Source: Chloroflexota bacterium
Lineage (GTDB): Bacteria > Chloroflexota > UBA11872 > VXOZ01
Reading direction: 5' to 3'
Assembly (NCBI GenBank): GCA_965221905.1
Contig: OZ244922.1
Coordinates: 3,168,001-3,232,000 of the forward strand
Length of the DNA stretch: 64,000 nucleotides
Within the stretch, counting starts at the first letter, position 1; each line of letters begins with the position of its first letter. The position numbers and the translations under genes were made by a program. Under the pieces are notes generated by a model that saw nothing but the letters and a program-made list of their open reading frames with translations, was not told the DNA's origin and made no database searches. Shown here piece by piece: positions 40,103-55,787 of the stretch.

Positions 40103-41143
40103 TCACGCAAGTGCGTACTTTGTCAACATATCGATATTTTGATCGCGATATCGAGGCAATCTGCCCAAGGCGTCGTCTGCGCTGATGCCGTGGTGAATAA
40201 TCTCACTGATAACCGTGCCCACTGCCAGAGGGTCATCCTGCCCAGGATAGAGCACGTTGCGTCCCACCATAGCCCCGCGCACGTTCGGACCGCCGCTCAA
40301 GCCGCGGGCAAACTCGCGAATCGTCGGTTCGGGATCATTATGCGACGCGCCGCCAAGCATCAAGAGCGGCATGGTCGTCGCCCGCACCACGCGCTCGTAG
40401 TCCTCACACACGGGAATCTTCAGCCACGTGCGCGCCGTATTGCCGCCCAAACCCGACAGCACGCCGATCTGCTTGAGCAGTTCGATGGGGTCCTTGACCG
40501 GTTGGTAACCGTTTTCCGTCCGCTTGACCGGCAGCGGCTCCAGGAAACTCGGCAGGCCCATCGCGCTCAGTTCGCTGACCGCCTCCGCTATATACATGAG
40601 AGTCTTGCCGGAACCCGGCTCATTTGGATCGAGACGCCACAGCACCTTGGCTCCATCCAGGTTCGCCTCGGCGATACCTTCGGCGGTGTAGGCGCTCATA
40701 TCGTCATCCATCTCGAAGACCGTGTTTGAAAGCCCGGAGCGGTTCATCGAACCCAGCAAGACCTTGCCATCCAAGAAGCTCGGTCCGCCGCCCTGCTTTA
40801 CGAGGTAATTGACGATGAAAACGTCGTCTAGAACGTCCGGTGTGGCCATGAGGCCGTCAACCAAGTCACCCATCAACGGCCGCAGCACGCGGCCCAAGTA
40901 CGTATGGCGGTCCGTCATTCCCAATGGGTCGGTGGGCGTGGCGGTGGACATGCGGGCGGGATGATCCGCCGCCAAGATGACGAGTTTGCCGTCCGGCGCT
41001 AACTGCCGGCGTCGCTTGCGCGAGCGCTGCTCCAAGGCCACGATTTCGGGCTTGTCCACCCGTACGTCAGTGATGCGCCAAAACACGTCTTCGGGGAAAA
41101 ATCGATCGAGATTAAATTCGTACGTACGCGACGCCTCTGCCAT
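40103..41143 (-). CDS. Class I aldolase-like TIM barrel (Cgl0159/LacD-like)
   Basis: ILAADHPAR, GSMNRSGL, WLKIP, LMLGG, GRNVLYP. Confidence 0.75.
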   Translation of the reverse strand: MAEASRTYEFNLDRFFPEDVFWRITDVRVDKPEIVALEQRSRKRRRQLAPDGKLVILAADHPARMSTATPTDPLGMTDRHTYLGRVLRPLMGDLVDGLMATPDVLDDVFIVNYLVKQGGGPSFLDGKVLLGSMNRSGLSNTVFEMDDDMSAYTAEGIAEANLDGAKVLWRLDPNEPGSGKTLMYIAEAVSELSAMGLPSFLEPLPVKRTENGYQPVKDPIELLKQIGVLSGLGGNTARTWLKIPVCEDYERVVRATTMPLLMLGGASHNDPEPTIREFARGLSGGPNVRGAMVGRNVLYPGQDDPLAVGTVISEIIHHGISADDALGRLPRYRDQNIDMLTKYALA

Positions 41144-41457
41144 GTAGTGCCTCCGGTGACAATCGTGCAGTGTGCATGCCCGCACTCCATCTTATACCAA
41201 TTCAATTTGCCTACGCTACACATTGCATATAGCGCAGCATTACCATTCGTCGTTACTCTGTGTACGGAAGGAAAACTCCCGTTCCAAATTCGGAGATTGG
41301 CAGAATGCCGGTTAGGTCAATTGCCAGGACAGTATGCGGCAATCATGGTTCGCGTGAATAACCGGCAAAGAAAGCATATCATGGTCTATTGGGTGCAAGT
41401 CCTCGATCAGCAAGGAACAGTGCCGGCCCATTTGTAAGGAATAAGAGAAAGTCCTAG

Positions 41458-41877
41458 ATGCCTGATAGCTCTAGTCCGCAGCCCCACGTGCCCGCTGAAA
41501 CCAAAGGACGGCACAAGACCATCGCCGTCGTTGCCGGGGAATGGCACCTGCGAGCACTCGTCCGCGCTGCCATTGAGAACAAGCGCACGAGCGTTGTCGA
41601 GGCGTCGTCTTTGCAAGCACTGAACGCGCTGGCCCACGACGAACGTCTTGCCCTTGTAATTCTGGATGCCGACCTCGCGCCTGACAACACGGTGCCTGAT
41701 TATGCCCCGCTCTTTTGTGACCCCGTGTTCGCGGCCATACCGCTAATCGTTCTCACCGACCGCACCGCGCGTGACGTTACGGCACTCACCGGCGCAAGTC
41801 AGCAGGTTCGCACGCTCTACAAGCACTTCAGCCCCTTCGAACTCCTAAACATCGTGTACACGCTCACGGGCTATTAA
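41458..41877 (+). CDS. Stand-alone, degenerate response-regulator receiver domain
   Basis: LVILDADL, IPLIVLT, KHFSPFEL; acidic pocket reads AGE. Confidence 0.65.
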   Translation: MPDSSSPQPHVPAETKGRHKTIAVVAGEWHLRALVRAAIENKRTSVVEASSLQALNALAHDERLALVILDADLAPDNTVPDYAPLFCDPVFAAIPLIVLTDRTARDVTALTGASQQVRTLYKHFSPFELLNIVYTLTGY

Positions 41878-42107
41878 ACTCCCGACTGGGGTTTAAGGCT
41901 GTTGGCAGTGCTTGTTCGCTACAACTGGAAGCTTCTTCGACATCCTAATCCCAAAAGTAGGAACTTGACTGTGCGGGCCGTTCCAATCTCGTTGCAGGCG
42001 AGACAGGGGTATGCCATGCTAGACGCACGAGCGGCATTGAGTCACTCGTGCTGGCGGAAGCAGTGACAGGGATAGTCCAGCGGCCTTTCACGTGCAAGGA
42101 ATAAGAC

Positions 42108-42992
42108 ATGCAGAACTTTCGCGTTACCGCAGTCTCGTTGCGCAGCCGACCGGCGTCGCCGCAGGAGAACCTCGACCATCACGCCGCCTGGGTTGCGCGC
42201 GCCAAGGCGGACGATCCCGATCTCATCTGCTTTCCTGAGCTCGGCCTGACCGGCTACTCCATCACTTCAGCCATTTGGGATTCATCCGAACCGGTGCCGG
42301 GGACTTCCACCCAGGCGCTCGTCGATCTGGCGCGCACGCACAACGTTATGCTGGCCGCCGGCATTGCCGAGAACGACCGCGACATCGTCTATAACACCTA
42401 CGTTATTGTCGGGCCGGACGGGTACATCGGCAAGTCGCGCAAGATCCACATCCCACCGGCGGAGGTGGGCTATTGGCGCGGCGGCGGCATTCCACCGGTG
42501 ATCGACATTGGCCCCGCCAAAGTCGGGGTCAACATTTGCTTCGACAACTGGCTGCCGGAGTCCGGCCGCATGGTAGCGCTCCAAGGCGCTGAGGTGATTC
42601 TCGCTCCGTACGTGTGGTCTGTCGGCGACTGGAGCGACCCGCCCGACCATGTCAGCCGCAACCGCGCGTGGAAAGACTACGCCGGGCGCACGTTTCCGGC
42701 ACGAGCCATCGATAACGGCGTCTTTCTCGTTGCCATTAATGCCTGCGGTCCCGCTCCCGACAGCGAAAGACCGTACTACGGCAATCCCATGGTCATGATC
42801 TACAATCCGCTGGGCCAACTGGTGGCGGCTTCACCGGACGAGGCCGGTGACGAGGTAATGGTCACCGCCGATCTCGACATGCAACTCCTCGCCGAGCGGC
42901 GTTCGCAGGGCGTATTCCATCCCCGCTTCCGGCGGCCGGAGCTTTACGGCCTCCTGGCGGAAGGCGACATCGGCCCGCAAGACCCGCGCTAA
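42108..42992 (+). CDS. Carbon-nitrogen hydrolase (nitrilase superfamily)
   Basis: FPE, RKIH, ICFD triad, RAIDN, RRPELY. Confidence 0.92.
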   Translation: MQNFRVTAVSLRSRPASPQENLDHHAAWVARAKADDPDLICFPELGLTGYSITSAIWDSSEPVPGTSTQALVDLARTHNVMLAAGIAENDRDIVYNTYVIVGPDGYIGKSRKIHIPPAEVGYWRGGGIPPVIDIGPAKVGVNICFDNWLPESGRMVALQGAEVILAPYVWSVGDWSDPPDHVSRNRAWKDYAGRTFPARAIDNGVFLVAINACGPAPDSERPYYGNPMVMIYNPLGQLVAASPDEAGDEVMVTADLDMQLLAERRSQGVFHPRFRRPELYGLLAEGDIGPQDPR

Positions 42993-43144
42993 CTGGGGCA
43001 GACTCTCCCCCCTCGCACGTGCGTGCGTGTGATCTCTTCTAACTCCGAGTAAAACATTCGCCGTTTCAAGCGGAGGCTAGCCTATTTGCAGTCAATCCTC
43101 CCGCTTGCGAACCATAGAAAGTACAACCACGGACAACACTCCCG

Positions 43145-43453
43145 GTAGCGTAGGTTTGTAACCTGCGCCCACATGGTGGGAGGCAGTCCCTGTGAGCGCC
43201 TGGCCCTCATTCTTTAACGCTACGATAGTTCCCCCTCACCCCGGCCCTCTCCCTCGATGGAGAGGGGGCAATACGCGGACGAGAAAAGTGAACACGTGGC
43301 ATTTCCTAATTGCGCGAAACTGCTTGGTGCAAGCTCCCGCGCTACGATCTCTTTCTTTCATGCAACTAAGAGGAGCGGGGGACAAGTCCCCGCGCTACAT
43401 TCCTCCTAGCAGTCCCAATGCCGCTCCAAGCGGGGGGTAAGCCCCCGCGCTAC
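43145..43453. repeat. REP cluster upstream of dop (GTAG/CTAC REPs and a CCCTCTCCC element)
   Basis: gtagcgtaggtttgtaacctgcgc; cccctcaccccggccctctccc..ggagagggg; three copies ending cccgcgctac at 43345, 43398, 43453. Confidence 0.75.
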
Positions 43454-43583
43454 GGTCCGTCTTGCAGCCCCTCGCGCGAGACCCTACGCAATTCACTTTA
43501 CACACCGGACACCCGCCTGCACCATCGTGGCGCACTGCGGCTTGCTATACTAGATTCCACAAGCGTAAAGGCAGGAATTATTC

Positions 43584-45098
43584 ATGAATCGCCCGGTAGG
43601 CATTGAGACCGAGTATGGCATGCTCTGCGCCAGCAGCACGCAAGCAGTGGACTTTGCCTATGAAGCAGCCATGCTCGTGCGCAGCGCGCCGCTGGAAGAA
43701 TGCTTTCGCGGCTGGGACTACACTGCCGAGGACCCGCGCTTAGACCTGCGTGGGTCACGCGTCGACCGCCTCGACCAAGACCCACACGACCTGCGCGACA
43801 GCAACGCTAAGAGCAAGCAACTCTCCCGACAGGAACTCCTTGCCGACACCGTGCTTGCCAACGGCGCGCGCTTCTACAACGACCACAACCATCCCGAGTA
43901 CTGCACGGACGCCTGTCTTTCGCTCCACGACCTCGTTGCCCAGGACAAGGCCGGTGAACGCGTGGTCTTTCGTGCCCAGCAGGCGCGGAACGCCGCCATC
44001 GGGAATGACTCGCACGTGCGCCTTGTGAAGAACAACTCCGACTACCACGGGCGCAGCTACGGCTGCCACGAGAACTATCTGGTGAAGCGCGCCGTGCCAT
44101 TGAATTACCTGGTTGCGGCCTGCATTCCCTTCTTCGTCACCCGTCAGATCTACGCGGGCGCGGGCAAAGCAGCGATTGAGTCGGCAGCTGGCCGCGCGGG
44201 CGGCTTTCAAATTAGCCAGCGGGCAGACTTCTTCGAAACCGAAGTCGGCATCAACACTACGACCAAGCGTCCGATTTTCAATACGCGCGATGAGCCCCAT
44301 GCCGATCCGCAGAAATACCGCCGCTTGCACGTCATCATCGGCGATGCCAATTGCTCTGAGTACGCCACGGCACTCCGCGTGGGAACCACGGCCCTAATGC
44401 TCGATCTGGTAGAAGAGGGTCTTGCGCCTCGTCTGCAACTCCGGCATCCGGTGCAAGCGCTCCAGACCGTCTCTCGCGACCTCGAACTGAAGCAACCCCT
44501 CGCGTTGGCTGACGGCACGACTATGCGCGCCATTGACATCCAACGCCACTACTGGGAAGCCGCGCAGCGCTACCGAGAGAGGGACGCCGAGACAACTTGG
44601 GTGCTCGACGAGTGGGGCGCCGTGCTCGACCTGCTCGAAGCGAACCCAACCCAACTGCGCGACCGTCTCGACTGGGTGGCAAAGCTGGCGCTTTTCGCTC
44701 AAGTCAGCGGCGGCACGAGTATCGATTGGGAAGACCCGGCGGTGCTCAGGCTCGATTTGGCCTACCATCTCATCGATCCCGACTTAAGTCTCTATCATAT
44801 GCTGACGCGCGCCGGTCGGATGCGGCGTGTCGTGACGGATGCGGCCGTTGCACAGGCGGAAACAACGGCCCCTGCAGGCACGCGCGCAGGTGTACGCGCC
44901 GCTTGCCTTGCCAAGTTTGCCGAGCACATTACGGAAATGGAATGGGGATCGATTACGTTTCAACACAATGGATCAGCTTTCACTCTGCCGCTCCCCGAAT
45001 TGTGGGGAGCATCTGTCGATAGCCAACAACAGATGCTCGATTCTTGTCAATCTATCGAGGAGCTCCGCCAAGCAGTGCGCCAAGGAGGTGACACGTGA
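43584..45098 (+). CDS. dop: Dop-type deamidase/depupylase (PafA/Dop family)
   Basis: GIETEYG, Dop loop WDYTAEDPRLDLRG, NGARFYNDHNHPEY, KNNSD..GRSYGCHENY, NTRDEPHAD, RRLHVIIGD. Confidence 0.9.
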   Translation: MNRPVGIETEYGMLCASSTQAVDFAYEAAMLVRSAPLEECFRGWDYTAEDPRLDLRGSRVDRLDQDPHDLRDSNAKSKQLSRQELLADTVLANGARFYNDHNHPEYCTDACLSLHDLVAQDKAGERVVFRAQQARNAAIGNDSHVRLVKNNSDYHGRSYGCHENYLVKRAVPLNYLVAACIPFFVTRQIYAGAGKAAIESAAGRAGGFQISQRADFFETEVGINTTTKRPIFNTRDEPHADPQKYRRLHVIIGDANCSEYATALRVGTTALMLDLVEEGLAPRLQLRHPVQALQTVSRDLELKQPLALADGTTMRAIDIQRHYWEAAQRYRERDAETTWVLDEWGAVLDLLEANPTQLRDRLDWVAKLALFAQVSGGTSIDWEDPAVLRLDLAYHLIDPDLSLYHMLTRAGRMRRVVTDAAVAQAETTAPAGTRAGVRAACLAKFAEHITEMEWGSITFQHNGSAFTLPLPELWGASVDSQQQMLDSCQSIEELRQAVRQGGDT

Positions 45099-45319
45099 CC
45101 TGGTATGCTGGAGACAAGCCGCAGACGGAATGTCCCTCCCGCAAAGCGCGGGTAGACTCCGAGCGGCAAAGCTTCCGTCCCGCTGTGGCGGGTACCGAGG
45201 TGCCCACGGAAACGCCTACGAAGGCTCCGGAGAAGACCGAAACCGACGATCTTGACGAAGAAATCAAGCGCATTATTCGCGAGGTGCCCGATCCCACACC
45301 TCAGCCCGGCGGAGAGTAG
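45095..45319 (+). CDS. Prokaryotic ubiquitin-like modifier candidate (Pup/UBact analogue) ending in GGE
   Basis: 74 aa, P/T/E-rich, ends DDLDEEIKRIIREVPDPTPQPGGE; RBS AAGGAGGT at 45082-45089; GTGA overlap with the dop stop. Confidence 0.85.
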   Translation: MTWYAGDKPQTECPSRKARVDSERQSFRPAVAGTEVPTETPTKAPEKTETDDLDEEIKRIIREVPDPTPQPGGE

Positions 45320-45797
45320 CTAAGACCCATTCAGTTGCGCACAATAGACGCACACCACAGAGTCGTCGTAGCCCTTTATATAGTTTGCCCCTCATGAATC
45401 CTGCAGAAATGGCTTACGGGACGAGTGATCGGCCCAGTGGCTTGCGTCCCTGGCCGATACCTGAGTCACAATCCAAGCTTCAAGCCCTATCGCTAAACGT
45501 AATCACCTCATGTATGGCAAAGGATCCGTACCTCTAGCGCTACCACCGAAACCGATACCGTCACAGCGCCGGCACCCACCGCCGTGGCAACAGGCAAGAG
45601 CAGGGCGTCGAAACATCCAATGGAATTGCAGTGCTGGATATTTCGCCGACAGCATGGGAATATGGAACGGCAAGAACTGATGCCCATATATCGGTTGCCT
45701 TAGCCATTAGATAGCGCAGTCACGAGCCGTGACTCCTCAAGTACTAAATTCGAACGTGGCGGGCGGAACGTAAATCTTCACTCCAGCGAAGAACCTA

Positions 45798-45869
45798 CCC
45801 CGTATCGAGTACGGGCAGAAGTCCAGCGGCTGCGGCGAAGATGGATTCCCGCTTTCGCGGTAATGACGG
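45798..45869. repeat. REP-like remnants upstream of pafA
   Basis: ccccgtatcgagtacggg and tggattcccgctttcgcggtaatgacgg. Confidence 0.7.
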
Positions 45870-45954
45870 CGTTGAACGTGTTCTAATTGCAATAGATGCG
45901 AACCGGATTTACGAAACTGTCAACGAATTAGTCAGCTCTTTCAGGATTGCCAGC

Positions 45955-47463
45955 ATGGAAGATGCACTCTTTGGCACCGAAATCGAATACGGCTGTGTGG
46001 GTAGCGTACAACCGGTGCGGGCGGCAGTGTTGGTTAAGGATGCCATCTTTCGCGGGTGCAGGCACGGCCTCATCGATCCCCCGCCTCGCGAGTGGGGCGA
46101 AGTGCCGGGAAACGGCGGCTTTCTCTTCAACGGTGGGCGCATGTACTTAGACCTCGGCCACCTGGAGCACGCCACCGCCGAGTGCCGCACTCTAACGGAT
46201 ATCGTCGCCCACGAGCGGGCCGGTGAGAACATCGTCAATCAAGCCGTCCAAGTTGCCGGACTCAAATCTCAGGCCTACTTCGTCAAGAACAACACAGATT
46301 ACTTCGGCAATACGTATGGCTACCACGAGAATTACTGCATCCGCCAGAGTCCCTATGACAGCGGTCTGGTAGACGGCATGCTCCCGTTTCTCGTCACCCG
46401 CCAAATCTATGCGGGAGCCGGCTGCCTGCTGCCCCGCGGCGATGACACCCCGGCAGCCTTTTCTCTCTCCCAGCGCGCGCAATTCGTGACAATTGACGTT
46501 AGTCACCGGGTACGCTTTGGCGGCAGACCCATCATCAATTTGCGCGACGAGCCGCTTGCGGATCGGCGGTTCCGTCGCCTGCACGTCATCGTCGGCGACG
46601 TGAATCGCTCGGAGTACGCGACCGCGCTGAAAATCGGCTCCACTGCGCTAGTTGCCCAACTGCTGGAGCAAGGGTGGAACCCGCAGCTTATGCTTGCCGA
46701 CCCCGTGCGCGACTTGCGCCGCATTGCCGCAACCACCGGCGGCAAGTGGACCGTAGGCACGGTGGATGATGAGTACATTCCCGCCATCGAGGTGCAACGC
46801 CGCTATTTGCGCGAAGCCGAGCACCGCTTTGCGGGCCGGGACGCGGATACGGAATGGACTCTTGAAAACTGGGCCTGGGTGCTCGACGAACTCGAGCGCG
46901 ATCCGGCGCGCCTCGACGGCTATCTGGACTGGGTGACCAAACATGAGCAGATCAAGCGTTATGCCGGCACCGATAAGGCGTGGACCGACCCGGACTTGGT
47001 GAAGCTCGATCTCTCCTATCACCAAATAGACCCGTCGGTGAGTCTCTTCGATATTCTTGCAAAGCGGCACCGGAACCTCTACTGGGCGGATAGCGACGCC
47101 GTCTACACGGCCGAGGCGCACGCGCCGTCCGATACCCGCGCCCACGGTCGCAGCCTGGCACTGCGCGCGCTTGCCGCCGCCGGCGCGGATACGGCCATCC
47201 CTTGGCAAGATTTGAGAACCAATCTGGAAAACCTCATGTGGGACCGCCGTTTCTTCTTTCTCGCCTACGACTACGTGGACGATTGGCAAGACGTGGCCGC
47301 GAACAATAGCTGGGACGTTATTCCCTACGTGCTGGACTGGAAAGCCATCGCCGCGCACGGCCGGGTGCTGGAAATGCCGAACCCATTCGCTACGTACGAC
47401 GACGAGGCGCAACAGTTTGGGGAAAGCATCCGGCACATCTTCGAGGAAGAGGAAGCAGATTGA
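45955..47463 (+). CDS. pafA: PafA-type Pup/UBact protein ligase
   Basis: GTEIEYG, FLFNGGRMYLDLGHLEHATAEC, KNNTD..GNTYGYHENY, RPIINLRDEP, RRLHVIVGD; no WDY Dop loop. Confidence 0.88.
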   Translation: MEDALFGTEIEYGCVGSVQPVRAAVLVKDAIFRGCRHGLIDPPPREWGEVPGNGGFLFNGGRMYLDLGHLEHATAECRTLTDIVAHERAGENIVNQAVQVAGLKSQAYFVKNNTDYFGNTYGYHENYCIRQSPYDSGLVDGMLPFLVTRQIYAGAGCLLPRGDDTPAAFSLSQRAQFVTIDVSHRVRFGGRPIINLRDEPLADRRFRRLHVIVGDVNRSEYATALKIGSTALVAQLLEQGWNPQLMLADPVRDLRRIAATTGGKWTVGTVDDEYIPAIEVQRRYLREAEHRFAGRDADTEWTLENWAWVLDELERDPARLDGYLDWVTKHEQIKRYAGTDKAWTDPDLVKLDLSYHQIDPSVSLFDILAKRHRNLYWADSDAVYTAEAHAPSDTRAHGRSLALRALAAAGADTAIPWQDLRTNLENLMWDRRFFFLAYDYVDDWQDVAANNSWDVIPYVLDWKAIAAHGRVLEMPNPFATYDDEAQQFGESIRHIFEEEEAD

Positions 47464-47648
47464 CTGTAGTGTTCACTGCGTGTAATACGCGCAATTGCCT
47501 TTCATACTTCGACAGGCTCAGCACGAACAGCATGGTGATTAGCACTATAGTCCGTCGCCTGAGAACGTAGCGCGAGAGCTTGTCCCTTGCTCCGATCTAC
47601 TACCGGAAAGCAATCGTTCCATTACGGCTATTCAGTCTGTCAAACGCG

Positions 47649-47676
47649 GTAGGGGCACGGCATGCCGTGCCCCTAC
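47649..47676. repeat. GTAG-type REP palindrome
   Basis: gtaggggcacggcatgccgtgcccctac. Confidence 0.85.
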
Positions 47677-47708
47677 GTTCATATCAGTGAATGCCTGCCG
47701 CGAGGCGG

Positions 47709-49145
47709 CTACGTCTTCCGCCGCCACAACGTTCCGCTAGCCGAATCCTCCAGCGAAATGCCTAATGCCGCCAACTCATCCCGCACCTTGTCCGCCAGCG
47801 CAAACTGCTTCTCCTGCCGCAGATCGGCCCGCAATTCCACGAGAAGATCGATGAACCCTCCGGCATCGCCGTCACCGGTCGCCATCTCCAACTCCAAGAC
47901 CTCTTGCAGGTCGATGCCCAAGATGTCGGCCAGTGTCACCAGCGTTTCCTGGGCGGCCTGCAGTGTCGAGGGTTGCGCCACGGCTCCCAGGCGGTTGATC
48001 TCGCGCACAAGTTCGTAGAGCTGCCCCATTGCGCCGGCAGAGTTGAAGTCGCTATCCATGGCGGCAAAGAAGCCGGATTCCGCCTGCTGCGTTGCCCGAG
48101 CAAGCTCTGCGTCCGTGCTGGCGACTTCAGCATCCGTGCTGCCGTCACCGCTGCTCTGCACGCGCAAAGCGCCGGTAAAACGCGCCATTCCGGCCCGTGC
48201 CTGCTCAAGACTTTCCGGCGTATACGTGAGGGGCGAACGGTAGTGGACAGAGAGTAGGTAGAGCCGCAGCACCGGGCCGCTGTACTCGTCGAGGATGTCT
48301 TCGATGGTAATGAAGTTGCCGAGCGAATGCGCCATCTTTTGGCCGTTGATGGTAAGCAGGCCGGTGTGCAGCCAATACTTCGTAAACGGACTCTTCCCCG
48401 TGAACGCCTCGCTCTGCGCGATCTCATTCTCATGGTGGGGAAAGATGAGGTCGGCGCCGCCGCCGTGAATATCGATCTGCTCGCCCAGGGTCTCGTAGAT
48501 CATCGTGCTGCACTCGATGTGCCAGCCCGGTCGCCCCTGCCCCCAGGGGCTCTGCCACCAGGGCTCGCCGGGTTTCGCCGGCTTCCACAGGGCAAAGTCG
48601 CGCGGGTCGCGCTTACCCGGATCATCGTCAACGCGCCCCGAGGCCCCCGCCTGGATGCCGCTATCCTCAGTGCGAGTGGAGAGCGCGCCGTACTGCGAAA
48701 AACCGGAAACGGAAAAGTAGACCGCATCGTCGGCTGCGTAGGCAGCCCCCTTCTCGATCAACCCCTCGATCATCGCGATGATCTGCGGCAAAGTCTCCGT
48801 GACCTTGGGAAAGTCGTGCGCCCGCAAGACATTCAGATTTCCCATCACCGCGTCGTAGGCGTCCGTGTATTTCTGCGCCACTACATCGGCCGTAACTCCC
48901 TCACGCTCAGCCGCCGCGATGATCTTATCGTCAACGTCGGTGATATTCTGCACGTGCTGCACCTCGTACCCGCAGTACACAAGGTAGCGCCGGATCATAT
49001 CCATCGCCACAAAAAGGCGGGCATGGCCGACGTGCGGCTCGCGCTTGGGCGTCATGCCGCAGACGTACATCTTGACCTGCTTGCCGTCCAGGGCTGTGAA
49101 CGGCTCTCTTCGGCTGCCGAGCGTATTGGAAATGCTAAGCGTCAC
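47709..49145 (-). CDS. cysS: Cysteine-tRNA ligase
   Basis: [42 protein letters not shown]; GTG start overlapping the end of cysE. Confidence 0.96.
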
Positions 49146-49824
49146 GGCACCTCTCCAGCGTCTCCTCGTGCTCGGCTGAAGCCCCATCATCCTCGAAGCG
49201 TGCCAGCCGCGCTTCCAGGTCTGCCACGCGTTTCTGCAACGCGTAGAGCGCTTCGGCCATTGGATCGGGCTGCACCACCCGCGCGCTCTCGCCCGTTTGC
49301 GGATCGCGCATGGCCACCACGTGTCCCGGCACGCCCACCACCGTGGCATGCGGCGGCACATCGTTCACAACGACGGCCCCCGCGCCAATAACACAGTCTT
49401 CACCGATCATCACCGGCCCCAAGATTTTCGCTCCCGCGCCTACCACGACGTTATCGCCCAAGGTAGGATGACGCTTGCCGGAATGCAGCGTCTGCGCCCC
49501 CAAAGTCACTCCCTGGTACAGTGTGACGTTTTCGCCGATTTCCGCGGTCTCGCCGATTACGACACCCATGCCGTGGTCGATGAAGAGCCCTGGGCCCAGT
49601 TGGGCCGCCGGGTGAATCTCGATGCCGGTGAGAAAGCGGGCAACGTGGGAGAGAAAGCGCGGAACCACAGGAATGTCCGCTTGCCACAGCGCGTGGGTCA
49701 TGCGATAGAACCAAATCGCGTGCACGCCCGGATAGGCCAAGATGATTTCGATTACGTTGCGCGCGGCAGGATCGCGTTCGAGCGTTACACGTATGTCCTG
49801 CCGCAGCGTATGAAGAATGCTCAT
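49135..49824 (-). CDS. cysE: Serine O-acetyltransferase
   Basis: [33 protein letters not shown]. Confidence 0.96.
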
Positions 49825-49911
49825 TAGAAATACCCTCGTTACATCACTGCGCTTCTATCGACTAAGATTGCGCGTGGTGAGCTTGTGCTCGCGCGCAATC
49901 ACACAGGGCCC

Positions 49912-50502
49912 CTAGCGGGGCGGAATACACGCGCAGTCTTGCAGCGAGGGATCGTGCATCAGAAGCGCCACAGCGTGCACACCGATGCCGTGACCGGCGC
50001 CGATCGCGTCTAGTCCTTCGGTGGTTGTGGACTTTATGCCTACGGTCACTGCCGCCACTCCAAGCGTTCGGGCAATGTTGGCCTGCATCTTGGGAATAAA
50101 GCCCGCAAGCCGAGGCCTTTGCGCCAGAATTGCACTGTCTACATTTATCACACGCCACTGTCGTTCAGCCAGTAGCTTACGCACACTGCCCAACAATTGC
50201 AAGCTATCGGCGCCCTCGTATCGCGGATCTTCCGCGGGAAACTGGCGTCCGATGTCGGGCAGCCCCGCGGCTCCGAGCAGCGCATCGATGATGGCATGCA
50301 CCAGCACGTCGGCGTCGGAGTGCCCCGCAAGACCTTGATCGTGGGGGACGTGTACACCGCCAAGAATCAGGGGACGGCTAGGAGCAAGGCGGTGAATGTC
50401 GTAGCCGATACCGATGCGAAGCGCGGGGGCCGCGGGTGCTAATGCTGCGGCCTCTCCCTCATCTTGAACGGCAGGCGGCGTATCGGTTTGCGCTGCCTCC
50501 AC
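49912..50502 (-). CDS. ispF: 2-C-methyl-D-erythritol 2,4-cyclodiphosphate synthase
   Basis: RIGIGYDIH, GHSDADV, DIGRQFP, KSTTTE; start inferred. Confidence 0.95.
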   Translation of the reverse strand: MEAAQTDTPPAVQDEGEAAALAPAAPALRIGIGYDIHRLAPSRPLILGGVHVPHDQGLAGHSDADVLVHAIIDALLGAAGLPDIGRQFPAEDPRYEGADSLQLLGSVRKLLAERQWRVINVDSAILAQRPRLAGFIPKMQANIARTLGVAAVTVGIKSTTTEGLDAIGAGHGIGVHAVALLMHDPSLQDCACIPPR

Positions 50503-51224
50503 TACGCGCCTCCATCGCTGCGCTGCGTGCGCACACTTCTGTGCGCACGCCATTGAGCGAATGCCAAGTCCGTTGGCGTGGTGATTTTCATATTACCATA
50601 GTCCCCCGGCACGACGTGGACAGGCGCGCCGGTAGCCTCCACCACGGCCGCGTCATCGGTGAACGCGGCGAGGTGCGCATGGTGCTCCTTGTACGCGCAT
50701 TCCAGCAGTGCGCGCGTGAAGACTTGGGGAGTCTGTATGGCGCGCAAGGCGCTGCGCGGTAGCGTCTCGCGTGCAATATCGTTCGTATCAACACGCTTGA
50801 TGGTGTCGGCGCACGGTATCCCAGGCACCGCCGCGCCGTGCTGCCGCGCGGCAGCAAGCAAGCGCGCAATTAGCTCCGGGGTCACGAACGGCCGCGCGGC
50901 GTCGTGCACGGCCACGTAAGCTGCCGGAGTGTCATCCAGCGCCTGGAGACCGTTCGCCACCGAGTGGCTCCGGCTCGTCCCGCCCGCGCAGACTGCATGC
51001 ACTTTACACCAGGAGCGCTTCCGGGCAAGCTCCCGGCAGAATCCGACGCGCTCCTCGGCCACGACGAGTATGATCGTGCTAACCGCCGCTGACGACTCAA
51101 AGACTTCCACCGTGGCGGCAAGCACCGACCGTCCGCCCAGTGGCGCATAGAGCTTGTCGTGGCCCTGCATGCGGCTGCTACTACCGCCACCCACAACAAT
51201 CGCCGCCAAGCTGGTATTCCTCAC
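50502..51224 (-). CDS. ispD: 2-C-methyl-D-erythritol 4-phosphate cytidylyltransferase
   Basis: VHDAARPF, QTPQ, TDDA, NMKITTPTD. Confidence 0.95.
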   Translation of the reverse strand: MRNTSLAAIVVGGGSSSRMQGHDKLYAPLGGRSVLAATVEVFESSAAVSTIILVVAEERVGFCRELARKRSWCKVHAVCAGGTSRSHSVANGLQALDDTPAAYVAVHDAARPFVTPELIARLLAAARQHGAAVPGIPCADTIKRVDTNDIARETLPRSALRAIQTPQVFTRALLECAYKEHHAHLAAFTDDAAVVEATGAPVHVVPGDYGNMKITTPTDLAFAQWRAHRSVRTQRSDGGA

Positions 51225-51479
51225 ACGCGCAGGCCTCCTTCAGGGAGCCTTATAACGCCCGCAAAAGTCCGCTCACAGTGAGCCCACTTGTTCTTAGCAC
51301 GTCGTAGCGTCTAATCATGAACGAACATCCCTTGACCCTTTTGACACGCTCAGAGACTGCCGTGTACTCGATACGAGGGGCGGACGGGATGGAAGTGCTC
51401 GACAGCATCTTTGCAAACACCCTCCTGCAGCGTGTGCGCTTGCTCTGCCGGACTCTCGGCACGGTATCACGTCCACTCC

Positions 51480-52928
51480 TCATTGCCGGCGCACAGCGGC
51501 TTCCTCTGTGCCTTCGCGAGCGCCTCCATCATCGCCCTTGCGGCTCGCTCCCTGCGCTTTTCCCAGGGCGAGACGGATAGACTGTCGCACACTCTCAGCG
51601 CGGGAGAGGTCGAGGCCGTCCTCGCCAAGCGATGCAAGCGCGCCGGTGCGCGGCAAGAGCACCCGGTTGTACCCCCGACGCGCCGCCTCCAGGACTCGTT
51701 CTTCCAACTTAAAGACGCTCCGCAGCTCACCTGCCAACCCGACTTCTCCAATCGAGACCATATCACCCGGCAGAGCGACGTCAACGACGCTGGATGCGAT
51801 TGCCAAACAGACTGCGAGGTCTACGGCGGGTTCGTCCAATTCCAGGCCGCCGACCACGTTCACATAGACGTCCTGGTCGGCCAAGCGTAAGCCCGCGCGC
51901 TTGGTGAGCACCGCAATCAGCATGTGCAGGCGGCTCTGATCGAATCCGTTCGCCATGCGTCGCGGTACCGCCAGCGGACTGTACGTCACCAACGCCTGCA
52001 CCTCGACGAGGAGCGGACGAGAACCCTCGAGCGGCACGGCAATGGCAGACCCCGGTAGTGGTTCCCGCTCTGCCAGAAACGCTGCCGAAGGGTTGGAAAC
52101 TTCCGCCAAGCCCCGCTCCTGCATGGCGAATATGCCCACTTCGTTCGTAGACCCAAAGCGATTCTTCGTGGCTTTCAGAATGCGGTAGTTGTGGTGCTGA
52201 TCTCCGTCCAAGGCCAACACCGTATCTACCATGTGCTCCAGCGTCTTCGGCCCGGCCACAGTGCCCTCCTTGGTCACGTGGCCGACCAAGAAAAGCGTGA
52301 CTCCCGTCTGTTTGGCCAGCGCGACCAACTGGGAAGCGCATTCTCGTACCTGTCCGATACTGCCCGGTACCCCCGATAGCTCCGCGCTAACCAGCGTTTG
52401 AATTGAATCGATGATCACCAGGCCGGGACGCACCTGCGCAATTGCATCCAGGATTCCCTCTAGACCAATCTCGGCGAGGACGTAAAGCTCCTGCGGGTCG
52501 AGACCGAGCCGTGACGCGCGAATGCGGATCTGTGCCGCGCTCTCCTCCCCCGACACATAGAGCACAGGCCGGTCGGCGTGCTCCAACGCTACTGCAAACT
52601 GGAGCAAGAGCGTAGACTTTCCGATTCCGGGGTCGCCGGAGAGCAGCACCGCGCTCCCCGGCACTAAGCCGCCGCCCAAGACGCGATGGAGTTCACCGAT
52701 CGGCACCGGAATGCGGATGAGATCGCTGGCAGGAATGTCTTGGAGTTTCCGCGCTTGCAGAGCGGCGGTGGGCGAGCGCACGCCGGAACGCCTTGCACCC
52801 GCGGCTCCCTCCCTCTGCACATTTTCGACAAAGCTATTCCAGGCCTGGCAAGAGGGGCACTGCCCCGCCCATTTCGGGGACTCTGAACCGCACTGCTGAC
52901 AAACGAAAACGCTCTTAGCCTTACTCAC
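51480..52928 (-). CDS. radA: DNA repair protein RadA/Sms
   Basis: CxxC..CxxC, GDPGIGKST, KNRFG. Confidence 0.97.
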   Translation of the reverse strand: MSKAKSVFVCQQCGSESPKWAGQCPSCQAWNSFVENVQREGAAGARRSGVRSPTAALQARKLQDIPASDLIRIPVPIGELHRVLGGGLVPGSAVLLSGDPGIGKSTLLLQFAVALEHADRPVLYVSGEESAAQIRIRASRLGLDPQELYVLAEIGLEGILDAIAQVRPGLVIIDSIQTLVSAELSGVPGSIGQVRECASQLVALAKQTGVTLFLVGHVTKEGTVAGPKTLEHMVDTVLALDGDQHHNYRILKATKNRFGSTNEVGIFAMQERGLAEVSNPSAAFLAEREPLPGSAIAVPLEGSRPLLVEVQALVTYSPLAVPRRMANGFDQSRLHMLIAVLTKRAGLRLADQDVYVNVVGGLELDEPAVDLAVCLAIASSVVDVALPGDMVSIGEVGLAGELRSVFKLEERVLEAARRGYNRVLLPRTGALASLGEDGLDLSRAESVRQSIRLALGKAQGASRKGDDGGAREGTEEAAVRRQ

Positions 52929-53072
52929 GAGCGACCCTCTCCGTGGCGGTTCTGTCCTGCTCTTATCGAACCTGCGCGTTCCATTCAGGGCCTACACGTG
53001 TATTGTATAGCGAATGCGCTGCCGGCACTCCCAGCGGACACCTTTGCGAAATCCTCGCCGAGGCCAGAGAGA

Positions 53073-53138
53073 CCCCTCTCCAAATGGAGAACTTTGCGAA
53101 ACCCCTTCCACCGTGACGGGGGAAGGCTGGGATGGGAG
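53073..53138. repeat. CCCTCTCCC-family palindromic remnants
   Basis: cccctctccaaatggaga ... ccccttccaccgtgacgggggaaggctgggatggg. Confidence 0.55.
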
Positions 53139-53321
53139 TGCAAGACAGCTTCGCGGCAAGCTATCGCACACAACCCACTCACCTCTGGATACCGGTACGT
53201 GATACAGGGCAGGCATTTCGCCGCAATGACGGCGTTATTCAAAGTCTCCAGCGGTAGAAACGCAAACAGCCCAGCAATTTGCCGGGCCGTTCTTCATCGA
53301 ACATAAATCGAATTCTTCGAT

Positions 53322-55787
53322 CTACGCCTGCTCCACCAACATGCGCACTTCCAAGCGCAATACCTCACCGTCACGGTCTACCGTAATGATATCCCCCGCG
53401 TGGAAATTCTCCGCCAGCAGGCCTTCTGCGAGCTCATTCTCAATCAAGTTTTGGATTACGCGCCGCAGGGGTCGCGCGCCATTATCGGGATCATAGCCTT
53501 GTTCTACCAACAATTCTTTGGCATCGCCGGTGACTTCCAGCGTAATCTCATGCTCGGTGAGGCGTGCCTGCACCTCAGCCAGTTGAATGTCTACGATACT
53601 TATGATGTCTTCTTTTAACAAGTGGCGGAAAACTACCACGCTGTCCACGCGATTCAGGAACTCAGGACGGAACGTCTTCTTGATCTCCGCCATCACGCGT
53701 TCCCGCATTTCCTTGTAAAACTGCCCCTCAGTGCGGAGATCTTCGGACTCCAACCTGAAGCCAATCGCGGCGTCACGCTTAATCAGGTGCGCGCCAACAT
53801 TCGAAGTCATGATGAGGATCGTGTTTCTGAAATCTACCGTGCGGCCCCTGCCGTCGGTTAGCCGCCCGTCTTCCATGATTTGGAGCAGCACGTTGAAGAC
53901 ATCCGGGTGGGCCTTTTCGATCTCGTCCAGGAGCACTACCGAGTAACTGCGCCGCCGCACCGCTTCGGTGAGTTGGCCGCCCTCTTCATAGCCCACGTAG
54001 CCGGGCGGAGCGCCGACCAATCGGGATATCGTATGCTTCTCCATATACTCCGACATATCAAGCCGGACCATGGCGTCGCTGCTGCCAAACATAAACTCTG
54101 CCAGTGCCCGCGCAAGGTACGTCTTGCCGGACCCCGTGGGCCCGACGAAGATGAAAGAGCCTATGGGTCGCTTCGGGTCCTTGAGACCGGCACGCGCGCG
54201 TCGCACCGCCTTGGATACGTTGCTGATGGCCTCTTCCTGGCTGACCACACTTCGGTGTAAGTTCTCCTCCATGTGGAGCAGTCGTTCAGATTCCTCTTGG
54301 GCGATGCGGGTCACCGGGATGCCCGTCCACATGGAGACCACGGTCGCCACGTCTTCTTTCGTGACATTCGGCCACTTCTCTTCTTCGTTCGGCCAGTCCG
54401 ATTCGAGGTCTTCGATCTTCTTGCGCAATTCCGATTCTTTCTCGCCGAGTCCAACCGCCTCGTCATACTGGCGGCTCTCGATGGCGTCTTCTTTCTCGCG
54501 CACGATCCCGTCGAGGTCCTTCACCGCGTTGCGCAGCGCATTGGAGGTGTTTGCCTGCTGGATACGAACGCGTGAAGCCGCTTCATCGATCAAGTCGATT
54601 GCCTTATCAGGCAAGAAGCGATCGGTCACGTAGCGACCCGACATCTCCGCAGCCACTTTAACGGCTTCATCGGTAATATGCGCCTTATGGTGCTCCTCAT
54701 AGCGTTCTTTGACGCCCTGAAGCACCGCAATGGTCTCCTCAATGTCAAGTTCCCGTACGTGCACAGGTTGGAAGCGACGCTCTAGCGCAGCGTCACGCTC
54801 GATATACTTGCGGTATTCGTCCAGCGTGGTGGCGCCGATGCATTGCAATTCTCCCCGCGCCAAGGTGGGTTTGAGGATATTGGCGGCGTCCACCGCACCT
54901 TCCGCTGCGCCGGCTCCCACAAGCGTATGCAGCTCATCGATAAAGAGCATGCAATCGCCAGAGCCACGGATCTCCTCGAGAATCTTCTTAAGCCGCTCTT
55001 CGAACTCGCCGCGATACTTCGTACCGGCCACCAATGCGCCGATATCCAAAGTAAGCAGCCGCTTTCCAAGCAAGGTTTCCGGCACGTCGCCGGCAATGAC
55101 CCGCTGCGCCAGCCCTTCCACGATTGCCGTTTTGCCGACGCCCGGTTCTCCGATAAGGGCCGGATTGTTCTTGGTGCGGCGCGAAAGTATCTGCACCACA
55201 CGCTCGATTTCCTGCTCGCGACCAATAACCGGATCAAGCTTATCCCCACGCGCCGCGGCCGTGAGATCAATGCCCATCTGGTCGATCAATGGGGTGCGTG
55301 AGGTTGATTGGCGTCCGCTACTATCCTGGGTGAGGCGTGAAGGTTGCTGGCTCACCGATTGGATGACCTTCTGCCGCACTTTTTCCAGGCTCACGCCCAG
55401 GCTTTCCAGGACGCCGGCCGCAATCCCTTCACCCTCTCGAACCAGGCCGAGCAGCAGGTGCTCGGTGCCAATGTAGTTATGTCCCAGCCGACGCGCTTCC
55501 TCAACCGCAAGCTCAATGACCTTCTTCGCGCGGGGTGTCAGGCTGATCTCACCAACGTTGACGCGCTCTCCCCGACCGATGATGAACTCCACGGCGCTGC
55601 GCACCTTGGTAATGTCCACACCCATGTCGTAGAGGACTTTTGCCGCTATTCCCTCGCCCTCGCGCACAAGGCCCAACAACAGGTGCTCGGTGCCAATGTA
55701 GTTATGGTTGAAGCGGTTTGCTTCTTCCCGAGCAAGCATGAGAACTTGCTTCGCCCGTTCCGTATACTTGTCGTAGAGAGGACTCAC
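53322..55787 (-). CDS. clpC: ATP-dependent Clp protease ATP-binding subunit ClpC
   Basis: Two Clp-N repeats, [11 protein letters not shown]-like M domain, [11 protein letters not shown] ClpP-binding loop. Confidence 0.97.

Follow-up and report, generated by a model that had tools for sequence, protein, structure and literature searches.

A putative third sequence family of Pup/UBact-type protein tags in a class of Chloroflexota

What is the role of a 74-residue protein encoded between two genes of the Pup_ligase family in a bacterium for which we detected neither a proteasome nor the matching unfoldase? The question is raised by a locus of a Chloroflexota bacterium (GenBank assembly GCA_965221905.1, contig OZ244922.1), lying within a stretch of 64,000 nucleotides (positions 3,168,001 to 3,232,000 of the forward strand) that was analyzed as a whole; we call this stretch the window, and coordinates below follow its numbering. 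To our knowledge, only two sequence families of such bacterial tags have been catalogued, Pup and UBact, and both are thought of as proteasome degrons; UBact, with its Dop and PafA homologues and a proteasome, was reportedly described in 2017 from Gram-negative bacteria and candidate phyla. An initial annotation of the locus, made from the letters of the DNA, had proposed that the small protein is neither Pup nor UBact and founds a new ubiquitin-like family. We conclude that this protein, hereafter the tag, is likely to be a conjugatable tag of the Pup/UBact kind that belongs to an uncatalogued third sequence family. By sequence the tag stands for a family of its own, but the system around it is of a known kind, here in a proteasome-free form, and no new kind of modifier is involved; the proposal of a new family is thus upheld at the level of sequence, within the Pup/UBact kind, and "ubiquitin-like" applies by function only.

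A conserved short gene between two Pup_ligase genes

The locus consists of three genes and two elements that concern the tag directly:

43584..45098, forward strand: Dop-like enzyme of 504 aa, a predicted de-conjugase (and deamidase where the tag ends in Gln), assigned from Pup_ligase, the alignment with Dop and the enzyme tree
45082..45089, forward strand: Shine-Dalgarno sequence AAGGAGGT, 5 nt before the GTG start, read from the sequence
45095..45319, forward strand: 74-aa modifier of the new family (P0001), with a variable N-terminal half, a Pro/Glu/Thr-rich linker, one helix and a Pro-rich tail ending in GGE
45242..45316, forward strand: predicted conserved enzyme-binding segment of the tag, residues 50-74, defined by near-invariant columns, a helix in the AlphaFold2 (AF2) model and the modelled interface
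45955..47463, forward strand: putative PafA-like ligase, 502 aa from the ATG at 45955, assigned from Pup_ligase, the alignment with PafA and the enzyme tree

The open reading frame (ORF) of the tag is a genuine gene, far more than a chance ORF. It runs over 74 codons from a GTG start to a TAG stop, and the coordinates, the strong ribosome-binding site AAGGAGGT and the translation that had been claimed for it all agree with the DNA; with GTG read as Met, the protein ends in ...DDLDEEIKRIIREVPDPTPQPGGE, an end also quoted as ...TETDDLDEEIKRIIREVPDPTPQPGGE. Its neighbours likewise contain the motifs that had been quoted from them: the Dop-like protein has ...ARFYNDHNHPEY, and the PafA-like protein has VPGNGGFLFNGGR. 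The GTG shares 4 nt (GTGA) with the TGA stop of the upstream 504-aa gene, an overlap that suggests translational coupling. Within the predicted enzyme-binding segment, the helix TDDLDEEIKRII is followed by REVPDPTPQPGGE, whose terminal Glu would by analogy be the reactive residue. Standard annotation misses the gene, the protein is named nowhere beyond "hypothetical protein" in the sources checked, and a look-up in the ESM Atlas gave no usable match for it. Contigs from metatranscriptomes (four runs from two studies) cover the locus at 90-99% identity, and one of them, spanning 44921-45610, takes in the 3' end of the Dop-like gene together with the whole tag ORF; since DNA carry-over is possible in such libraries, this cover is a weak hint of expression.

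Strong constraint falls on the C-terminal part of the protein. A word-seeded search with the tag gave 24 candidates, of which 23 scored at E<=10. With few exceptions these proteins have exactly 74 residues; the N-terminal half differs among them, whereas the last ~40 positions hardly change. When a profile was searched against 1.84 billion cluster representatives, 21 clusters were obtained at E<=0.001, all 21 of which carry P[DG]P[TAK]PQPGG[EQ] as their extreme C-terminus. Members of the family are 55-100 residues long, end in G[EQ], and have the tail consensus RIIRE[IV]P[DG]PTPQPGG[EQ]; N-terminal of the helix lies a conserved Pro/Glu/Thr-rich stretch, TEAPxKPxExPTE. The tail has been kept through saturating synonymous change and is therefore held by selection on the protein: in 16 genus-level sequences, the last 40 codon columns comprise 27 that change only synonymously, 2 that are invariant and 11 that change the residue, and in 27 class-level sequences the last 16 columns comprise 12 synonymous-only and 4 residue-changing columns, with none invariant at the DNA level. 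The terminal residue across 27 loci is E in 22 and Q in 5, and nothing else. Conservation of the GG[EQ] tail in orthologous loci, on which the initial annotation had made its proposal depend, was found to be complete.

Pup_ligase genes occur in 44 of 401 Chloroflexota genomes sampled across the phylum, 43 of them above the cut-off, and all 43 genomes belong to the window's own class. In a six-frame search of this class with the family profile, 89 of 98 genomes, from 17 of 20 genera, each gave a single copy of the tag. The order Dop-like gene, tag, PafA-like gene is present in all 15 related genus-level loci, which come from uncultured Chloroflexota genomes, as well as in 11/11 loci from four other families of the class, and the three genes are intact in 26 of 26 loci. 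The genes flanking the cassette vary between families of the class, and no conserved fourth gene (ATPase, protease or reader) was found around it in eight class loci from four families. The window genome, a single 3.52-Mb contig with a completeness of 99.6%, has only two Pup_ligase genes, both in the cassette. For four genomes of a single genus (G358, G350, G402 and G403), the tag lay in a listed open frame of 568-628 aa, which had suggested a Dop-tag fusion. We rejected this candidate for the two genomes inspected: in G358, one of the four, and in G035, an unflagged genome of the same genus (frame listed as 58 aa), the Dop-like gene and the tag share a frame but have an in-frame stop between them, and are separate genes there.

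The two flanking proteins can be told apart by profile scores and by alignment to solved structures. Pup_ligase of Pfam matches the Dop-like protein with 522.3 bits and the PafA-like protein with 358.9 bits. Among the NCBI equivalog models, the Dop-like protein scores 455.4 bits with TIGR03688 for Dop (cut-off 492.3) versus 362.6 with TIGR03686 for PafA, and the PafA-like protein 290.9 bits with TIGR03686 (cut-off 551.3) versus 256.8 with TIGR03688. The former aligns end to end with the solved Dop 5lrt (382.5 bits), including the region of the Dop-loop, which in Dop precedes strand beta2, and its conserved Trp, and D100/H101 correspond in this alignment to D94/H95 of the solved enzyme; the latter finds its best PDB match in PafA 4b0t (216 bits) and has no Dop-loop. 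In the part of PMC8599861 used here, the Dop-loop is given as the hallmark separating Dop from PafA, and D64 of Corynebacterium glutamicum PafA, with which D66 of the PafA-like protein aligns, is the residue mutated in the solved Pup complex. As a separate observation, the Dop-like proteins of the class themselves have C-terminal tails that contain Gly-Gly (QGGDT here, window 45080-45098; ...KGG and ...EGG in another genus, L031 7483-7509, L039 and L040), and the actinobacterial comparison Dop ends in ...TGGE, which resembles the end of the tag.

Relationship of the tag and its enzymes to Pup and UBact

Is the tag a member of one of the known families that has been overlooked? With the Pfam models of Pup (PF05639; Pup is also modelled by TIGR03687) and UBact (PF20513, cut-off 27.8 bits), neither the tag nor any of 25 diverse relatives gave a match at E<=10 (none of 26 members), which agrees with the assignment to neither family, and the tag protein itself matched nothing in NCBIfam at E<=10. 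Six-frame searches with the Pup hidden Markov model (HMM) gave nothing in the window genome (E<=10) or in five class genomes (E<=1). The UBact HMM, applied in six frames to the 98 class genomes, recovered 0 of the 89 new-type tag copies at E<=0.01, and a single genome, G366, passed its cut-off (79.1 bits). Weak matches to the UBact HMM in the window genome (best 18.2 bits) were set aside as spurious, the best lying antisense inside a 529-aa gene and all of them lying elsewhere than the tag. A search of PDB chains with the family profile returned no Pup chain at E<=10; three 16S rRNA methyltransferases that it matched at E ~0.3, through a chance IEKIIHEIPNPT stretch, are irrelevant.

Profile-profile comparison led to the same separation. 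We aligned 26 sequences of the new family, 43 of UBact (seeded from the bona fide UBact of G366) and 19 of Pup (seeded from Nonomuraea pup, and a shallow profile, as its members are 77-94% identical to the first sequence). With hhalign, the new family scored E 0.31 against UBact and E 0.04, over 8 columns, against Pup, compared with E 0.23 for UBact against Pup. The new family thus scores no better than the two known ones do against each other, which makes it a third family by the same yardstick. The best segment shared with UBact, TDDLDEEIKR in the new family and TKELLRRMRR in UBact, is not significant; it lies 15 residues from the C-terminus in both, a shared position that is compatible with distant common descent. 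Counted from the C-terminus (new family n=26, UBact n=40, Pup n=19), the three families compare as follows:

Position -1: new family 22 E and 4 Q; UBact 23 E and 17 Q; Pup 6 E and 13 Q
Position -2: G in every sequence of all three (new family 26/26; UBact 40/40; Pup 19/19)
Position -5: Q in every sequence of all three (new family 26/26; UBact 40/40; Pup 19/19)
Position -7: Thr in 24/26 of the new family; Tyr invariant in UBact and in Pup
Positions -4, -6, -8 and -10: Pro in 26/26 of the new family at each; none in UBact or Pup
Median net charge of the last 30 residues: new family -5; UBact +6; Pup -8

Common to all three are only the Q at -5, the G at -2 and the E/Q at -1; the end GG[EQ] is found in all 26 members of the new family.

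To place the enzymes, we computed a tree with IQ-TREE (LG+G4) from 47 rows chosen out of 84; support is given as ultrafast bootstrap/SH-aLRT, Pup-type enzymes are represented by one genome, and rooting is by paralogue and midpoint only. The Dop-like protein falls into the Dop half and the PafA-like protein into the PafA half, and within each half the new type forms one monophyletic group (100/100 for Dop as for PafA). In the PafA half, its sister group is the UBact type (99/94), and the clade that joins the two (98/96) leaves out Pup-type PafA; in the Dop half, it groups with seven UBact-type Dops (89/98), while a second UBact-type clade (99/99) stands outside this group. A quick tree of all 84 rows agrees on monophyly and on the PafA grouping (97) and leaves the Dop half unresolved. 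On these sequences, the new-type enzymes appear as a clade of their own, sister to or nested among UBact-type enzymes, which bears out the resemblance to UBact-associated homologues suggested in the initial annotation; the new tag system is probably an offshoot of the UBact-type lineage.

This ancestry invites the explanation that the tag is simply a fast-evolving UBact (or Pup) orthologue, whose constraint relaxed after the proteasome and Mpa were lost and which the HMMs fail to recognize for that reason. The joint PafA clade and the grouping of new-type Dop with UBact-type Dops would be expected of such an orthologue, as would the same slot between Dop and PafA, the three shared C-terminal positions and the equal distance of the best hhalign segment from the C-terminus. 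Moreover, G366, which belongs to the same class and alone represents its family in the sample, has no copy of the new tag and instead carries the cluster Mpa-Dop-UBact-PrcB-PrcA-PafA, with an Mpa-like ATPase (453 bits), a UBact (79.1 bits) and two Proteasome-family genes. Against this, none of the 26 members matches PF20513 or PF05639, the UBact HMM misses every one of the 89 copies, the hhalign values do not surpass that between UBact and Pup, the C-terminal charge is -5 rather than +6, and the RYRQR and MRRVD motifs of UBact are absent. Relaxation would also be expected to show in the tail, which is instead among the most constrained parts of the protein. In both trees, the enzymes of G366 are placed within the UBact-type clades, where other sequences stand closer to the new clade than they do, so that descent of the new system from the G366 cluster is not supported by the data. 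We therefore regard a drifted UBact as unlikely: it is acceptable as a statement about ancestry, and as such compatible with a third family of the Pup/UBact kind, but it fails as a statement of family membership. Elsewhere in G366, other contigs carry two more PafA-like paralogues, and a third Proteasome-family gene stands apart from the UBact cluster (L032, L033 and L034; contig C14).

Predicted binding, chemistry and fate of the tag

How might a tag with such a tail be handled by its enzymes? AF2 modelled the free tag with low confidence (pLDDT 61), as expected for a disordered protein, with a single helix at residues 50-61 and nothing after it. Together with the prolines invariant at -4, -6, -8 and -10, this agrees with the description in the initial annotation of one amphipathic helix and a Q-x-GGE tail, helix 2 being replaced by a Pro-rich stretch. 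Pup occupies the groove of its enzymes with two helices formed by its last ~27 residues; by the AF2 model and the invariant prolines, the new tag is not predicted to do so. A complex of modifier and ligase, which had been suggested for modelling, was predicted from the PafA-like protein (17-row alignment) and residues 30-74 of the tag (26-row alignment). Its median ipSAE is 0.77 (runs at 0.77, 0.77 and 0.79), compared with 0.01 for the best of three controls; the 0.77 mark is reached by 58 of 80 solved complexes and by 2 of 110 mismatched pairs. Contact agreement between runs is at least 79%, and the pLDDT of the partner at least 65. The confident part of the modelled interface is formed on the tag side by residues 49, 53, 56-57 and 60-61, which share a face of the helix, together with every residue from 63 to 74; the ligase contributes residues 11, 13-17, 20-21, 66-69 (around the catalytic D66), 108, 115-122 and 332-371. 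The model supports, without proving, that the tag binds the PafA-like ligase.

In the mechanism that we propose, by analogy with the Pup mechanism and its two-helix binding mode as given in the part of PMC8599861 used, the PafA-like ligase would bind the last ~25 residues of the tag, as the amphipathic helix DDLDEEIKRIIRE plus an extended P-x-P-x-P-x-P strand. It would then attach the tag through its terminal Glu, joining the gamma-carboxylate to a target lysine in an isopeptide bond. The Dop-like enzyme would remove the tag, and would first deamidate it in lineages whose gene ends in Gln. The earlier suggestion that the terminal Glu makes deamidation unnecessary holds for the window genome, where Dop would then act as a de-conjugase only; it does not extend to the family, which as a whole still needs a deamidase given the Gln end in 5 of 27 loci. 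We infer this conjugation chemistry from the conserved catalytic residues and the strict E/Q end; the binding mode and the fate of tagged proteins are inferred as well.

The small protein might also not be conjugated at all, and act instead as a regulatory or pseudo-substrate peptide in the groove of one or both enzymes, or the cassette might be a decaying relic. Both enzymes do score below their equivalog cut-offs, and the tail is unlike that of every tag shown to be conjugated. A relic or a mere groove peptide is, however, hard to square with the conservation of the catalytic Asp residues and the Dop-loop Trp, with a terminal residue that is strictly E or Q on a tail under strong purifying selection, and with three genes intact in 26 of 26 loci. 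If there were no conjugation cycle, it would also be difficult to see why a ligase-type paralogue and a hydrolase-type one should both have been kept, and we consider this explanation very improbable.

If the tag is conjugated, what becomes of its targets? No match to the Proteasome family (PF00227) was found in the window genome, and its best match to the Mpa/ARC model (TIGR03689) reaches 153 bits over the AAA core only, with a cut-off of 505; C. glutamicum, used as a control, passes that cut-off. Four other tag-bearing genomes from four families have neither an Mpa-type ATPase nor a Proteasome-family gene. In total, the Mpa-type ATPase is absent from the six tag-bearing genomes tested (the window's and five more), five of which also lack a Proteasome-family gene. 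Proteasome-family matches occur in 12 of the 98 class genomes, and only in G366 do they form a clustered pair. With no Mpa/ARC-type ATPase and mostly no 20S gene, the tag cannot serve as a proteasome degron in these genomes, and it is most likely a reversible, proteasome-independent mark that is regulatory or is read by another factor.

Degradation could nevertheless be the outcome if a different AAA+ machine, such as ClpC, ClpX, Lon or FtsH, reads the conjugated tag. We know of no general role demonstrated for Pup other than degradation, the class retains the system in 89 of 98 genomes, and the TEAPxKPxExPTE stretch N-terminal of the helix could be a docking element; AAA+ proteins are at hand in the window genome, with a ClpC-like gene at 53322-55787 and FtsH-like AAA-core matches. 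Yet the cassette has neither an AAA+ gene nor a protease linked to it, whether in the window or among the eight class loci, and the ClpC-like gene stands in an ordinary radA-ispDF-cysES neighbourhood. Mpa engages the N-terminal half of Pup, and it is the N-terminal half of the new tag that is least conserved. We regard a degradation signal of this type as a plausible alternative, though less likely than not.

Several points weigh against a conjugatable tag that works independently of the proteasome. Conjugation of the new-family tag is predicted from sequence and modelling, and the scores of both enzymes under the NCBI equivalog cut-offs mean that their activities could have shifted. A second helix such as Pup places in the enzyme groove is ruled out by the presence of four prolines among the final ten residues, and at -7, where Pup and UBact always have Tyr, the residue is Thr, so the binding mode cannot simply be that of Pup. 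A Pup-PafA complex has already been solved (4bjr), and the pass of our complex model may therefore reflect likeness or memory. Ten of the 89 tag-bearing genomes do have a lone, weak Proteasome-family match (22-46 bits), unpaired and away from the cassette. The genomes with lone matches are G450, G451, G350, G230, G206, G161, G116, G238, G422 and G433; in G350 the match lies ~67 kb from the cassette.

Surroundings of the cassette and comparison with known systems

The PafA-like gene is separated from the tag by a spacer whose length ranges from ~20 to ~670 bp in related loci, and which in the window holds one further element:

45622..45949, no strand assigned: one ~300-bp copy of a dispersed repeat, with its 35-bp core near 45834-45870, inserted in this spacer and no part of the system

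Used as a query, the 635-bp spacer gave 46 matches in the window genome, ~19 of them of roughly 300 bp at 66-75% identity, and including many copies of the 35-bp core. The repeat creates a false N-terminal start, MDSRFRGNDG..., for the listed ORF at 45841-47463, which begins inside it; homology in 13 of the 15 related loci starts at residues 30-39 of that ORF, which makes the ATG at 45955 the most likely start of the PafA-like gene. A search of 41000-48000 against Rfam gave nothing at E<=1, and no inverted repeats were found in the spacer. At 45794-45923, the RNA-library contigs reach a depth hundreds of times greater than in the flanks.

Upstream of the Dop-like gene lie a receiver-domain-like gene (41458-41877, a weak Pfam match) and a C-N hydrolase gene of the nitrilase superfamily (42108-42992). 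By tblastn against the 15 genus-level loci, the C-N hydrolase was found in 10 and the receiver-like gene in 6; none of the 11 loci that represent other families of the class yielded the C-N hydrolase gene. Linkage of these upstream genes to the cassette therefore looks local, and both are conserved only at about the level of the genus. Downstream, a run of housekeeping genes on the reverse strand (47709-55787) comprises cysS, a serine-acetyltransferase-like gene, ispF, ispD, a radA-like gene and the gene for a ClpC-type AAA+ chaperone, which lies 6 kb from the cassette with no evidence of linkage seen.

In the literature searched, we found no description of such a tag system in Chloroflexota or in sponge symbionts, although a listing in the original UBact paper is possible. 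The part of the 2008 survey of pupylation used here (PMC2588565) lists nitrospirae, deltaproteobacteria, planctomycetes and verrucomicrobia, and not Chloroflexi. The new tag would be a third family, in a phylum that this literature does not mention for pupylation. Beyond the assignment itself, we tentatively propose, as a possibility that falls somewhat short of even, that a whole class of Chloroflexota runs a Pup-type cycle without a proteasome or an Mpa-type unfoldase, with a tag whose binding region is a helix plus a polyproline-like strand. If so, protein tagging through gamma-glutamyl-lysine bonds would have a conserved, non-proteasomal function in its own right. Strong selection on a tag in the absence of proteasome and Mpa unfoldase would make such a non-degradative role directly testable, and G366, of the same class and with a canonical UBact-proteasome cluster, is a natural comparison. 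Alternating prolines where Pup has helix 2 and the invariant Tyr lead one to predict that the tag sits differently in the enzyme groove, and a binding segment changed in this way may mean a specificity distinct from that of Pup/PafA, of use for proximity-labelling tools; the ligase-tag pair may even be orthogonal to both Pup/PafA and UBact, and offer a second channel for PafA-based proximity labelling.

How, then, does the system stand among those already known? Iyer et al. (2008; PMC2588565) give, in the part used here, a broad definition of Pup-type modifiers: 50-90 residues, a C-terminal G[EQ], and a gene linked to PafA-family genes. By its size, its G[EQ] end and its cassette with two Pup_ligase genes, the new family falls within this definition.

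The new system resembles that of UBact in having a small disordered protein directly after a Dop homologue with a PafA homologue downstream, in the G-[EQ] end and the Q at -5, and in its enzymes, whose nearest relatives in the tree are those of UBact. It differs in the tag and in the company of the cassette. UBact has the invariant pattern MRRVD...RYRQR[ST]G[EQ], whereas the new tag has neither RYRQR nor MRRVD and ends in T-P-Q-P-G-G-[EQ]; over the last 30 residues UBact is basic and the new tag acidic. The slot between Dop and PafA is filled in both systems, but the prcB/prcA genes and the upstream Mpa of UBact loci are absent from the new one. Of 34 long metagenome UBact loci, 22 extend as far as a PafA gene, and in these UBact and PafA lie ~1.5-3 kb apart; in G366 this gap holds the two Proteasome-family genes, whereas in the new loci the PafA-like gene is the next gene after the tag.

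With Pup, the new system shares an acidic, disordered tag with a GG[EQ] end and a Q at -5, an acidic amphipathic helix that resembles helix 1 of Pup, and the two-enzyme logic, the catalytic residues of the new-type enzymes aligning with those of solved Dop and PafA. The second helix of Pup is replaced by P-x-P-x-P-x-P, its invariant Phe at -11 and Tyr at -7 are missing, and its enzymes, sampled from one Pup-type genome, are more distant from the new-type enzymes than UBact-type ones are. Pup-type tagging without 20S genes is itself known from Corynebacterium and bifidobacteria, where its persistence implies roles beyond proteasomal degradation; there, Pup is canonical and the ARC/Mpa ATPase is retained. 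In the Chloroflexota system the ATPase is gone as well, and the tag itself has changed.

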